This document shows positions 59,216-64,000 of a stretch of DNA of 64,000 nt, one piece after another. Made by a program: the position numbers and the translations under genes. The stretch spans positions 140,309 to 204,308 of the forward strand of contig VGFA01000001.1 in assembly GCA_016869025.1 (NCBI GenBank), in the 5' to 3' direction. This stretch comes from Armatimonadota bacterium. Its GTDB lineage: Bacteria; Sysuimicrobiota; Sysuimicrobiia; Sysuimicrobiales; Humicultoraceae. The notes under the pieces were generated by a model. That model searched no databases. It saw only the letters and a program-made list of their open reading frames with translations, and was not told the origin of the DNA. Position 1 is the first letter of the stretch, and every line of letters starts with the position of its first letter.

Positions 59216-60415
59216 ATGGAACTCCTAGGCGCGGTGCCCGCGCTCGTGGCGTTCGGCGCCGCCCTCATCGAAGCCCGGCGCCACCGGCGGCATCTCGAGA
59301 GCATTCCCCACCGCATTCACGTCAACGGCACGCGCGGCAAGTCAAGCGTCGTGCGCCTTGTCGTTGCGGGCCTGCGGGCCGGCGGGCTCTGCGTCGTCGG
59401 CAAGACCACGGGTTCAGCGGCCCGCGTCCTGCTGCCCGACGGTGGCGAGGTTGACCTCCGCGGAGGCCGGCGTCCTTCGCTGCGCGAGTACCATCGCGTG
59501 GCCGCGCTTGCGGCAAGCGCCGGCGCCGACGCGCTGGTTGTGGAGTGCATGGCGGTGCGCCCTGAACTGCAGCGGGTTGCCGAGCGCCGGTTGATGCGCT
59601 CGACGATAGGCGTGCTCACCGGCGCCGGGCTTGACCACCTCGGCGTGATGGGCGACTCGCTGGGCGAGATCATGGAGGCGCTTGCGTACACGATTCCTGC
59701 CGGTGGAGCGCTGGTCGTCCCGGGCTCTCCAGTGCCCCAGGCATGGGCAGATCAGGCGGAGCAGCGCGGAACCCGCGTGCTGCCGGCGCAGCTGGAATCC
59801 GACCTTGCGCTGCCGTGCGGCTATCTCGAGTGGCCCGAGAACCTTGCAATCGCCCTCGAGGTCTGCCAGGAGGTGGGCGTTGACCGCGCAACTGCCCTGG
59901 CAGGCATGGTCCAGGTGAGGCCCGACCCTGGGGCGCTGCGCATCTGGCACCTGCGCCCCCCCGACGATACGGACGGCCGCCGCAATTCAGACCTCTGGCT
60001 GGTCGGTGCATTCGGCGCCAACGATCCGGACTCGACCGGACAGCTGGTCGCCCGCGTGCGCCGGCTGTTCGACCTGGCCGGCGCGCCCACGGCAGGCATC
60101 CTGAACACCAGGGCCGACCGGGGCGAGCGGACGCTGCAGTGGTGCCGGGCGCTGCTCTCGGATGAGTTCCACGTTGACCGCTTGGTCATCACGGGTCCGC
60201 ACGCCAGGGCGGCCGCGCGGCTGCTTGCGCAACGCGGATGGAACCGCGGGCGCGTGAGTGCGTGCGCCGACGCCTCCCCCGCAGATGTCACACGGGCAGC
60301 GGCAGAGTGCACAACCGACGCTCTTCTGGTAGTGGGCATGGGCAATGTCGCCGGTGCTGGAGCGGCGCTGCTCGCCCACTGGGCCGAGATAGGCGAGAGC
60401 GTTACAGGTGACTGA
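59216..60415 (+). CDS. pgsB: Poly-gamma-glutamate synthase PgsB/CapB (Mur-ligase-like amide ligase)
   Basis: It has the motif IHVNGTRGKSSVVRL and an N-terminal TM segment. 399 aa. Confidence 0.85.
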   Translation: MELLGAVPALVAFGAALIEARRHRRHLESIPHRIHVNGTRGKSSVVRLVVAGLRAGGLCVVGKTTGSAARVLLPDGGEVDLRGGRRPSLREYHRVAALAASAGADALVVECMAVRPELQRVAERRLMRSTIGVLTGAGLDHLGVMGDSLGEIMEALAYTIPAGGALVVPGSPVPQAWADQAEQRGTRVLPAQLESDLALPCGYLEWPENLAIALEVCQEVGVDRATALAGMVQVRPDPGALRIWHLRPPDDTDGRRNSDLWLVGAFGANDPDSTGQLVARVRRLFDLAGAPTAGILNTRADRGERTLQWCRALLSDEFHVDRLVITGPHARAAARLLAQRGWNRGRVSACADASPADVTRAAAECTTDALLVVGMGNVAGAGAALLAHWAEIGESVTGD

Positions 60416-60476
60416 GGGGTCACGGGTGACTGAGGGCATCGCAGAGCGTGGGGGCATGAATGTGAGGGGATGACAG

Positions 60477-60908
60477 ATGGCTGAGGCGTTGGGCACCGGT
60501 CTGGTTGTGTCGTTGCTCCTGTCCGAGTTCGTGGGGCTCTCGGCCGGTGGGCTGATAACGCCCGCATACCTTGCCCTCCTGCTGGATCAGCCGTGGCGCC
60601 TGGTTGGAACGCTCGCCGCCGCAGTCGTAGCGTTCGGCGCCTACAAGGGCCTGTCCGGTCACCTGATCCTTTATGGCCGGAGGAGGTTCGTGGCCATGGT
60701 GCTGCTTGGCGTCGCCGCGAACTGGGTCATCCAGGCTGCCGCTCCTGCGGCGGCGGTGGCCCTGGCCGTGCCGGTAGGCACCATCGGCCACGTCCTGCCC
60801 GGGTTGATCGCCAACGACTTCGAGCGGCAGGGAATCCTGGCGACCGTGGCCATGCTGGCCGCGGCCACCGTGGCCGCGGCGCTGGCGATCCGCGCGCTGG
60901 GGCTGTAG
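60477..60908 (+). CDS. pgsC: Poly-gamma-glutamate synthesis membrane protein PgsC/CapC
   Basis: 143 aa polytopic protein. CapC-like motifs are present (...GGLITPAYLALLL...). Confidence 0.75.
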   Translation: MAEALGTGLVVSLLLSEFVGLSAGGLITPAYLALLLDQPWRLVGTLAAAVVAFGAYKGLSGHLILYGRRRFVAMVLLGVAANWVIQAAAPAAAVALAVPVGTIGHVLPGLIANDFERQGILATVAMLAAATVAAALAIRALGL

Positions 60909-60921
60909 GCGCGGACGGGAC

Positions 60922-61989: not shown

Positions 61990-62047
61990 GGCAGGTGCCT
62001 GATAGCAGGCAGGACCGCGGCCCGCTACACTGGAACCGACCTAGGAG

Positions 62048-62671
62048 GTGATGGAGATGGTCTGTCGCAGGGTGCTGCCTGTTATGGCCAGGCTGCCGGT
62101 TGTGGCGGCGATGTTGGCCCCGGTAGTGACCCTGACCGTCGTGGTGATGCTGACCGTGACAGCGGCGGTGATCGGTGGGCCGGCGTTCACCTCTGATCCT
62201 CCGGTCCTGCTGACCTCAGGCGGGCAGAGCGCAGATCTGCAAATAGTGAAGATCCTGCTTGAGCGGCTGGGGCTGCCGAACACCACCACAAAGCATCTGG
62301 CCCGGGTCGAGGACATGCGCGATGTCAAGACCCTTGTGATTGCGGTCGGCGGAAGCACGAAGGGCCTGGGGGCCGCCGGGATTGACGCCGACCAGGAACT
62401 AGCGCGGGTGGGGGCGCTGCTGACCCGGGCGCAGGAGGCCGGCGTGAAGATCCTCACGCTGCACGTCGGCGGCACTGCCCGCCGGGGCGAGCTGTCCGAC
62501 CGCTTCATAGCCGCGGTGGTGCCCCGGAGCGGGCACGTGGTCGTTGCAACCGACGGCAACGCCGATGGGCTGTTCACGCGGCTGACCTCCCAGCATCGCG
62601 TCACACTGGAGACCGTCGAGCGCCTCTCTGACCTGGAGGCGGTGCTCCGCCGGATCTTCCGCGTCAGGTAG
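62048..62671 (+). CDS. Hypothetical N-terminally anchored protein in pgs locus
   Basis: 207 aa with an N-terminal TM/signal segment and a soluble domain containing a VIAVGGSTKGLGAAG glycine-rich loop. Confidence 0.4.
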   Translation: MMEMVCRRVLPVMARLPVVAAMLAPVVTLTVVVMLTVTAAVIGGPAFTSDPPVLLTSGGQSADLQIVKILLERLGLPNTTTKHLARVEDMRDVKTLVIAVGGSTKGLGAAGIDADQELARVGALLTRAQEAGVKILTLHVGGTARRGELSDRFIAAVVPRSGHVVVATDGNADGLFTRLTSQHRVTLETVERLSDLEAVLRRIFRVR

Positions 62672-62749
62672 GCCAGGTAGGCGTGGTCAGGTGGACATCG
62701 TCAGGAGGACGGCAGGGCTTGTGGGATTCCAACAGGAGGTGAACGCTTG

Positions 62750-64000
62750 ATGAAGACGCATCTGCGGTGCCTGCGCGGCGTCCTCGCCGTGGCGGTGATT
62801 CTGGTTGTTGCAGGCGTGCTCGCCGCGCCAGCCCCGCTGGTCGCGCAGCCGGTCAACCCGATTGCGACCGGCCGTGCCGGGATGGTGGCCACGGCCACCC
62901 CGCTGGCCACCGAGATCGGCCTTGAGATCCTCCAGCAGGGCGGCAACGCGGTAGACGCAGCGGTCGCCGCCGCGTTCGCGCTAGGGGTGGCCGAGCCGAA
63001 TGCCTCGGGGCTGGGTGGCGGAGGGTTTATCCTCATCCGTTTTGCCCGCACAGGTGAGACCGTCTACATAGACTACCGTGAGGTGGCGCCCGGTGCCGCC
63101 AGGCCGGACATGTACCTTGACCCGGATGGGCGCGTAAGGCCCGGCTCCACCACGGTCGGCCACTTGGCCGTGGCCGTACCCGGCACGCTGGCAGGCCTGC
63201 ACATGGCGCTCACGCGCTACGGCACGATGTCGCTGAAGCAGGTGATGGCGCCGTCCATATCCCTCGCGGAACGCGGCTACACCGTCACGAAGACGCTGAG
63301 CGGGATGATGCAGGACAACCTGGACAAGCTCAATCGGTTCCCCGCTGCCGCAGCGATCTACACGAAGAGAGGCCTGCCCTACGACCCGGGCAGCCGCCTC
63401 GTGCTGAGCGACCTGGCCGCCACCTACCGGCTGATCGCCTCTGCGGGACCGACCGTGTTCTACGAGGGTGAGATCGCAGACGCCATCGTGGCCGAGGTGA
63501 AGCGCGGTGGAGGCATCATCACGAAGGCCGACCTGGCCGGCTACCGCCCGAAGGTGCGCGTCCCGGTGCGCTCGACCTACCGCGGATACGAGATCATCTC
63601 AAGCCCGCCACCCAGTTCGGGCGGCACGCACGTTATCCAGGCGCTCAACATACTCGAGGGCTACGACATGGCCGGGCTCGGTTTTCAGACCCCGGCGGCC
63701 CTGCACGTCACGATCGAAGCGCTGAAGCGCTCGTTCGCCGATCGCGGGCGCTACATGGCCGACCCGGACTTCGTCCCGGTCCCCGTCGCCGGTCTGCTCT
63801 CGAAGGACTATGCGGCAGCGCTGCGCAGGACCATAGACCTGAATCGGGCCTCGCCCAGCGTCGCGCCCGGCAACCCAGAACCCTACGGGAAGTCGGCCAA
63901 CACCTCGCACATCTCGGTGGTGGACCGCGAGGGCAACATGGTTGCGCTCACGCAGACCATCAACTACTTCTTCGGCTCGGGCGTGTTGGTGCCCGGTACC
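62750..64000 (+). CDS. ggt: Gamma-glutamyltransferase (likely PGA-processing), 3' end beyond window
   Basis: It has a signal peptide and the motifs GNAVDAAVAAAFALGVAEPNASGLGGGGF and ...TSHISVVD (catalytic Thr region). Confidence 0.85.
   Translation, partial: MKTHLRCLRGVLAVAVILVVAGVLAAPAPLVAQPVNPIATGRAGMVATATPLATEIGLEILQQGGNAVDAAVAAAFALGVAEPNASGLGGGGFILIRFARTGETVYIDYREVAPGAARPDMYLDPDGRVRPGSTTVGHLAVAVPGTLAGLHMALTRYGTMSLKQVMAPSISLAERGYTVTKTLSGMMQDNLDKLNRFPAAAAIYTKRGLPYDPGSRLVLSDLAATYRLIASAGPTVFYEGEIADAIVAEVKRGGGIITKADLAGYRPKVRVPVRSTYRGYEIISSPPPSSGGTHVIQALNILEGYDMAGLGFQTPAALHVTIEALKRSFADRGRYMADPDFVPVPVAGLLSKDYAAALRRTIDLNRASPSVAPGNPEPYGKSANTSHISVVDREGNMVALTQTINYFFGSGVLVPGT

Follow-up and report, generated by a model that had tools for sequence, protein, structure and literature searches.

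A pgsB-pgsC-pgsW locus of an Armatimonadota bacterium and its association with a conserved candidate module for poly-gamma-glutamate trimming and uptake

The biology of poly-gamma-glutamate (PGA) rests almost wholly on the Bacillus PgsBCA and CapBCADE systems. The locus described here shows a second architecture and raises the question of how a gamma-glutamyl polymer might be made, exported and turned over with a third subunit that is not PgsA. It lies at the end of a 64,000-nucleotide stretch (the window) of contig VGFA01000001.1 from an Armatimonadota bacterium (GenBank assembly GCA_016869025.1), where five open reading frames (ORFs) follow one another head to tail on the + strand from pgsB to the window end (Table 1). 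The original prediction proposed a gamma-glutamyl polymer system with its own turnover enzyme. Our analysis supports and extends this proposal. We think it probable, if far from certain, that the locus couples, in one encoded unit, synthesis by PgsB-PgsC-PgsW with an extracytoplasmic module for trimming and uptake. The window instance is itself an ordinary member of the pgsW-type architecture; the conserved eight-gene system is the interesting part.

All five window genes exceed the cut-offs of curated hidden Markov models (HMMs) and, because of their E-values, their identities are not due to chance. PgsB scores 311.3 bits with the TIGR04012 equivalog (cut-off 222.7, E 7.5e-93) against only 18.4 bits for FolC and 17.8 bits for MurE, and its match to PF08245 (Mur_ligase_M) is weak. 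This score gap rules out a FolC, Mur or cyanophycin-type ligase; the original prediction, which grouping of pgsB with folylpolyglutamate or cyanophycin-type enzymes would have refuted, stands on this point. The protein is retrieved by B. anthracis CapB with an E-value of 2.2e-51; its translation includes a Mur-ligase P-loop of the GxxGKS/T type (G38-T-R-G-K42-S43) and its hydropathy indicates an N-terminal hydrophobic anchor at residues 1-19. PgsC, encoded beside pgsB, has about four hydrophobic segments, as expected of a small polytopic membrane protein, and exceeds both TIGR04011 (110.2 bits, cut-off 96.45) and PF14102 CapC (114.8 bits, cut-off 27); CapC retrieves it with an E-value of 1.1e-17. 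Both genes had been considered solidly assigned, and both score above the equivalog cut-offs. By homology, PgsB can be regarded as established as an ATP-dependent gamma-glutamyl ligase and PgsC as its membrane partner. PgsB-like genes are also plasmid-borne: a Chroococcidiopsis plasmid has them, as do linear plasmids or chromids of Streptomyces, whose copies lack annotation.

The third gene occupies the operon position of pgsA/capA, and there is no capA in the region. Its product reaches 292.4 bits with TIGR04332 (cut-off 100), covering model positions 8-307 of 307; the PGAP gene symbol for this family is pgsW. PgsW has no Pfam match at E<=0.01, and thus none to PF09587 CapA. In phmmer searches with the pXO2 proteins (E<=1e-3), CapA found no match among the ORFs read in all six frames of the window and of about 170 related loci. 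The positive controls of these searches behaved as expected, CapB retrieving PgsB, CapC retrieving PgsC and CapD retrieving the gamma-glutamyltransferase (GGT, 2e-46). Two fold searches gave no metallophosphatase-like resemblance and no solved structural relative. Together, the Pfam, phmmer and fold searches rule out that PgsW is a CapA in disguise, bearing out the view that the third gene lacks the metallophosphatase-like features of PgsA/CapA and that the locus has the alternative "pgs system protein" architecture. In a confident AlphaFold model built from 43 homologues (pLDDT 93.6), an alpha/beta domain of about 300 residues lies between membrane helices at about residues 10-29 and 328-352. 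Arg-rich segments lie beside both helices, at the extreme N and C termini, and following the positive-inside rule we infer that the domain is located outside the cytoplasmic membrane. PgsW and the DUF6305 protein encoded next to it both show a beta-strand followed by a Gly/Ser-rich loop; a distant paralogy between them is unsupported (hhalign probability 1%, E 0.05). In one Aminicenantes locus (L082) neither PgsB nor PgsC lies within 10 kb of a PgsW homologue, which is preceded by a tricorn-like S41 protease and a 164-amino acid (aa) ORF without a Pfam match.

How far does the operon extend? Within the window, pgsC starts 61 bases after pgsB and pgsW 13 bases after pgsC. The exact PgsW sequence is present on public contigs, one of which (L001) matches the window without a difference along the 13,079 bases that the two share. 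On this contig ggt ends 453 bases beyond the window and a 424-aa permease begins 17 bases later, followed by a 48-aa membrane protein and a 383-aa AstE/AspA-type protein with two 4-base start/stop overlaps. A malic enzyme gene lies 133 bases after the AstE-like gene. From the gene spacing and common strand, pgsB, pgsC, pgsW, the DUF6305 gene, ggt and the genes for the permease, the 48-aa protein and the hydrolase would form one eight-gene operon, of which the window holds the 5′ part. Promoter, terminator and Rfam scans of the pgs locus gave no signal above chance. The GC content of the region (0.69) is like that of the remainder of the window and therefore nothing marks it as foreign.

The GGT scores 393.7 bits with TIGR00066 for the 417-aa window part and 548.6 bits at full length (cut-off 357.85), and includes an N-terminal signal or anchor segment. 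Its catalytic Thr385 is encoded inside the window (63902-63904) and is invariant in the alignment (A3). The lid-loop residues lie just past the window end and were read on the identical contig: the E. coli lid loop, PNVYGLVGGD, corresponds to a 10-column gap in this GGT and in all module GGTs, and the small subunit aligns without gaps with those of B. subtilis and B. licheniformis (3a75_B, 2v36_B). The protein gives 144 bits with CapD (3g9k) against 286-456 bits with E. coli and Bacillus GGT chains, which rules out a CapD-type enzyme as its closest relative. GGT is documented as a PGA exo-hydrolase, and CapD anchors PGA (PMC4928254).

The last gene of the operon encodes a predicted zinc hydrolase. 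Members of the AstE/AspA family (succinylglutamate desuccinylase, aspartoacylase, DoeB) hydrolyse N-acyl-Glu or N-acyl-Asp, and in chemical terms gamma-Glu-Glu would itself be an N-acyl-glutamate closely resembling N-succinyl-glutamate. The protein matches PF24827 (41.4 bits, cut-off 25); its relatives in the PDB are 2qj8 and DoeB (6twm), and with the DoeB equivalog it scores 35.5 bits against a cut-off of 402.7. The zinc and substrate motifs H90/E93, R183-N184-x-N186-R187 and D219-x-H221-E222, with H90, E93 and H221 as the zinc ligands, are kept in at least 95% of 82 sequences, and the family has a specific insert, FRxGxRxxNPxxQWPDPxxYxH. An N-terminal signal or anchor segment is present, with an ASA motif following the hydrophobic stretch. 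PghP, which degrades PGA, is a zinc enzyme with a carboxypeptidase A-like fold (PMC4497714). Neither this protein nor the shorter AstE-like protein of Bacillota described below has a Pfam match to the PghP family (E<=0.01 to 1).

Between pgsW and ggt lies the gene for the DUF6305 protein (PF19823, 153.6 bits, cut-off 25, model positions 2-154 of 154), which no NCBIfam model matches. The ATG at 62057 is the gene caller's choice on L001 and is better spaced from an upstream AGGAGG than the alternative start at 62048. The protein consists of an N-terminal membrane anchor, a transmembrane segment in the window protein and a lipobox in Bacillota homologues, and a single Rossmann-like domain predicted to face outwards; the original prediction had placed a fourth anchored protein here, followed by a gamma-glutamyltransferase, as is the case. 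Its gene is the first of a conserved module composed of DUF6305, permease, 48-aa protein and zinc hydrolase. Almost the whole permease aligns with PF06808 DctM (34.5 bits, cut-off 23.8, protein residues 17-393); its Caproicibacterium homologue reaches 47.1 bits with the same model and the PGAP name is "TRAP transporter large permease subunit". It has no PDB sequence relative at E<=10. The 48-aa protein is a two-helix membrane hairpin, strikingly alike from Armatimonadota to Bacillota, with no Pfam or NCBIfam match, and its gene is invariably located between those of the permease and hydrolase with 4-base overlaps.

That these membrane proteins serve export, supplying the step carried out by Bacillus PgsA/PgsE or exporting glutamate, is in our view very improbable. 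CapA and CapE are absent, the small protein is close in size to CapE (47 aa), and the module is membrane-embedded and adjoins the synthase genes, all of which would fit. However, the module is missing near about half of the PgsW loci and is therefore not obligatory for synthesis, and DctM-type permeases are known as importers. The 48-aa protein is, moreover, not a CapE/PgsE: it has no similarity to CapE and is not encoded beside pgsBCW. A search with pXO2 CapE gave no match at E<=1e-3 in the window or the approximately 170 loci, although this is a weak negative since short peptides are hard to detect.

In the coupled synthesis, trimming and uptake that we favour, PgsB and PgsC would polymerise glutamate, and PgsW, anchored at both ends, would do the job ascribed to PgsA, taking the chain off the PgsBC site and across the membrane. 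PgsA has been proposed to remove the elongated chain (PMC4928254). The five remaining proteins would act on the exported polymer outside the cytoplasmic membrane. All four proteins with soluble domains (PgsW, DUF6305, GGT and the AstE-like protein) are predicted to be located there from their N-terminal anchors or signal sequences. The lid-less GGT would remove gamma-glutamyl residues at the amino end, or transfer them, and from the carboxyl end the anchored AstE/AspA-type enzyme would hydrolyse the N-acyl-glutamate (gamma-Glu-Glu) bond. Glutamate or short gamma-glutamyl peptides would be re-imported by the DctM-like permease and its 48-residue partner, to which DUF6305 might deliver them as a binding protein, so that synthesis, trimming and salvage would constitute a single encoded unit.

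HMMs made from three loci were used to annotate two samples, 80 PgsW-anchored genome loci and 80 DUF6305-anchored metagenome loci, each comprising the 80 most similar matches; counts were collapsed at 90% identity and refer to loci of at least 12 kb. A scan found PgsW relatives in 446 of 185,579 species representatives. PgsB and PgsC are present, contiguous with PgsW, in 49 of the 50 genome loci; of the 50, 26 include DUF6305, permease and AstE-like protein together and six include ggt. In the metagenome sample ggt, permease, small protein and AstE-like hydrolase accompany DUF6305 in every locus (19/19), and 11 loci have pgsBCW within 10 kb. No additional family common to both samples emerged when all ORFs were clustered without supervision. 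Complete or near-complete sets were found in at least six phyla, Armatimonadota, Bacillota, Fusobacteriota, Atribacteria (L016), Thermotogae (L023) and Aminicenantes, and several loci are from human-gut metagenomes.

The order of the genes varies. In Caproicibacterium sp. BJN0003 it is ggt, DUF6305, permease, 49-aa protein, AstE-like, short AstE-like, pgsB, pgsC, pgsW, kinase, regulator; in Fusibacter bizertensis pgsB, pgsC, pgsW, kinase, regulator, DUF6305, permease, 48-aa protein, AstE-like, ggt; and in Cetobacterium somerae kinase, regulator, ggt, DUF6305, "TRAP large permease", 47-aa hypothetical, "succinylglutamate desuccinylase", pgsB, pgsC, pgsW. Retention of the set despite such rearrangement speaks for a functional link and against inherited synteny. 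The kinase and regulator are a histidine kinase and a response regulator with a DpiA/CitB-type helix-turn-helix, a family known for carboxylate sensing; they are additions of the Bacillota and Fusobacteriota versions. The Bacillota versions also encode another, shorter AstE-like protein, likewise anchored and about 259 aa long, that is weakly similar to Csd4 and MpaA. Neither the two regulatory genes nor this second protein are present in the window organism. Fourteen Aminicenantes loci without ggt have a 702-aa PA-domain M28 peptidase between permease and DUF6305, which may substitute for the exo-peptidase function. The idea that it is glutamate carboxypeptidase II-like was dropped since its PDB matches are ordinary PA-domain aminopeptidases. 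Candidatus Fervidifonticultor octavus has, besides the full operon, an extra pair of permease and AstE-like genes upstream of pgsB.

Several observations weigh against a single encoded unit. About half of the PgsW loci have no module within 10 kb and around 40% of the DUF6305 modules (8/19) have no pgsBCW within this distance: the synthase and module halves are separable and therefore able to work apart. These fractions are themselves biased and are indicative rather than population estimates, because they come from best-scoring matches, mostly metagenome-assembled genomes. The eight non-redundant long DUF6305 loci without pgsBCW are what would be expected if ggt, DUF6305, permease, small protein and hydrolase mainly scavenged external gamma-glutamyl compounds (glutathione, PGA of other organisms, peptidoglycan fragments) and lay next to pgsBCW through shared regulation or by chance, an explanation which we consider improbable. 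It would suit the weak match of the shorter Bacillota AstE-like paralogue to Csd4 and MpaA, enzymes that cleave gamma-D-Glu-mDAP bonds of peptidoglycan peptides, and the nearest named relative of the host, the proteolytic Nitrosymbiomonas. Linkage to pgsBCW in six phyla and in differing gene orders is nevertheless hard to explain without a shared substrate, and in the window organism the eight genes are co-directional with short or overlapping gaps.

Other reservations concern the polymer itself. Structure searches with PgsW and DUF6305 returned generic Rossmann-like matches only, so that the roles proposed for both rest on position, topology and co-occurrence. Our literature search yielded no verifiable experimental polymer for any PgsW-type locus. 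In Francisella, the CapA of capBCA is annotated "poly-gamma-glutamate system protein" (PMC5362203); this locus is needed for virulence, its role in capsule formation is considered unlikely and its function is listed as unknown (PMC4688374). Finally, the conserved set includes no outer-membrane export component, and the host and several carriers are diderm.

The last two points lead to a different, and unlikely, explanation: that PgsBCW makes short gamma-glutamyl chains which remain periplasmic or envelope-attached, with the GGT acting as a CapD-like transferase and the zinc hydrolase setting chain length. Armatimonadota and, among the carriers, Fusobacteriota, Aminicenantes and Thermotogae are diderm-type phyla. 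Transfer of PGA to peptidoglycan by CapD is established in B. anthracis (PMC4928254), and CapD shares the absent lid loop with the module GGTs. By the scores given above, however, the GGT is far closer to the hydrolytic Bacillus and E. coli enzymes than to CapD, and monoderm Bacillota have the gene set too. Fusobacterium nucleatum, for its part, has been reported as a PGA producer (Candela 2009, cited in PMC4928254), the one Gram-negative for which this is experimentally shown. With Cetobacterium PgsW as the query, the protein was found in Fusobacterium sp. MFO224 and PH5-44, and F. nucleatum is not among the matches listed.

We would go further only tentatively, and with more doubt than confidence, in viewing all eight families as one undescribed "poly-gamma-glutamate cycle" system, distributed over at least six phyla including gut anaerobes and comprising three new functional types. 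The first of these would be PgsW, as a non-homologous replacement of PgsA without a solved structural relative; the second, a family of extracytoplasmic gamma-glutamyl carboxypeptidases or PGA hydrolases; and the third, a minimal transporter of three parts, with DUF6305 as a small binding protein of a new kind and the 48-residue hairpin in place of DctQ. The PgsW architecture is already in annotation databases; in the literature on TIGR04332, DUF6305 and pgsW we found a single mention in an annotation table and no functional study of PgsW, DUF6305 or the linked module. Such a cycle system would give the unexplained Francisella capBCA virulence locus a working hypothesis. Were the favoured coupling of synthesis, trimming and uptake correct, PGA or oligo-gamma-glutamate would be predicted in Armatimonadota, Aminicenantes, Atribacteria, Fusobacteriota and gut Clostridia, and PgsW-type loci such as Francisella capBCA would gain a testable model. 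The coupling would also provide new modifying enzymes for an industrially interesting polymer and an unusual transporter design. These predictions are directly testable because Cetobacterium somerae, Caproicibacterium sp. BJN0003 and Fusibacter bizertensis are cultured isolates or have deposited isolate genomes.

Table 1. Coordinates of the genes and other features discussed. Positions are those of the window unless an L number, our label for a public contig or locus, is given.
Feature	Coordinates	Strand	Size; model
pgsB	59216..60415	+	399 aa; TIGR04012
pgsC	60477..60908	+	143 aa; TIGR04011 + PF14102
pgsW	60922..61989	+	355 aa; TIGR04332 "poly-gamma-glutamate system protein"
DUF6305 protein	62057..62671 (alternative start 62048)	+	204 aa; PF19823
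ggt	62750..64000, runs past window end	+	first 417 of 567 codons; TIGR00066
Additions of Bacillota/Fusobacteriota versions	L005 13596-14375, 17019-19077; L007 7691-9715; L168 3427-5329		
PA-domain M28 peptidase, Aminicenantes	L018 15616-17724 (and 13 other loci)		
PgsW homologue, Aminicenantes	L082 9394-10984		
Extra permease and AstE-like pair, Candidatus Fervidifonticultor octavus	L011 1860-4555		
tmRNA gene	38986-39335	+	full-length; Rfam RF00023, 165 bits
GC dip	40001-44000		
Metal/metalloid resistance cluster	~51871-55811		
M20 peptidase and two NAD_binding_2 genes	55926-59107		

The surroundings of the operon include several other features. Immediately upstream lie genes for an M20 peptidase and two NAD_binding_2 (3-hydroxyisobutyrate dehydrogenase-like) proteins, of which one gene is divergent from pgsB. 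These genes are ruled out as parts of the system, being kept beside the operon only in the closest Armatimonadota relatives. Further upstream is a metal/metalloid resistance cluster which, from the labels on contig L001, consists of an ArsR-type regulator, ArsP, a thioredoxin-like protein, ACR3 and a split ChrA pair. Such a pair also occurs inside the Cetobacterium somerae cluster and is absent from about 165 other loci; its presence in both is probably a coincidence. The sole clear GC dip of the window (0.63-0.64, compared to 0.66-0.72 elsewhere) directly follows the tmRNA gene and may be a genomic island integrated at ssrA.

How does the locus compare with known systems? With Bacillus PgsBCA(E) and B. 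anthracis CapBCADE it shares homologous PgsB and PgsC proteins, as the CapB and CapC matches indicate, and a third gene for a membrane-anchored protein with an outward-facing domain; as on pXO2, where it is capD, a gene of the GGT family lies downstream in the same operon. In contrast, neither sequence nor predicted fold relates PgsW to CapA/PgsA, the protein has a second, C-terminal membrane helix, the operon is without CapE/PgsE, and its GGT is canonical rather than CapD-like. Bacillus loci have no counterpart of DUF6305, the permease, the 48-aa protein or the zinc hydrolase. At the level of annotation, the order pgsB-pgsC-pgsW is that of other TIGR04332 loci, for example in Cetobacterium somerae. 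The likeness to Francisella capBCA, a locus of three genes, is by product name alone.

The proposed transporter resembles TRAP systems (DctP-DctQ-DctM) in its tripartite layout of a DctM-like permease, a small membrane protein and an extracytoplasmic lipoprotein. It differs in that no DctQ, DctP or TAXI homologue is present, none being called in loci L001, L005, L007 and L168; the small partner, 48 residues long, forms two helices against the four of DctQ, and DUF6305 is a single domain of about 150 residues compared to the two-lobed binding proteins. The AstE-like enzyme has the HxxE...H zinc ligands and the NxNR motif of the AstE/AspA family but, unlike its cytoplasmic relatives, is membrane-anchored or secreted and carries its own insert; its likeness to PghP is limited to being a zinc enzyme of a carboxypeptidase-like kind. 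The GGT is similar to those of B. subtilis and B. licheniformis over the entire small subunit, in which there is no lid-loop insertion and the catalytic Thr is kept. In B. subtilis, however, ggt is far from pgsBCA (PMC4928254), whereas in the window organism it appears to form part of the same operon.

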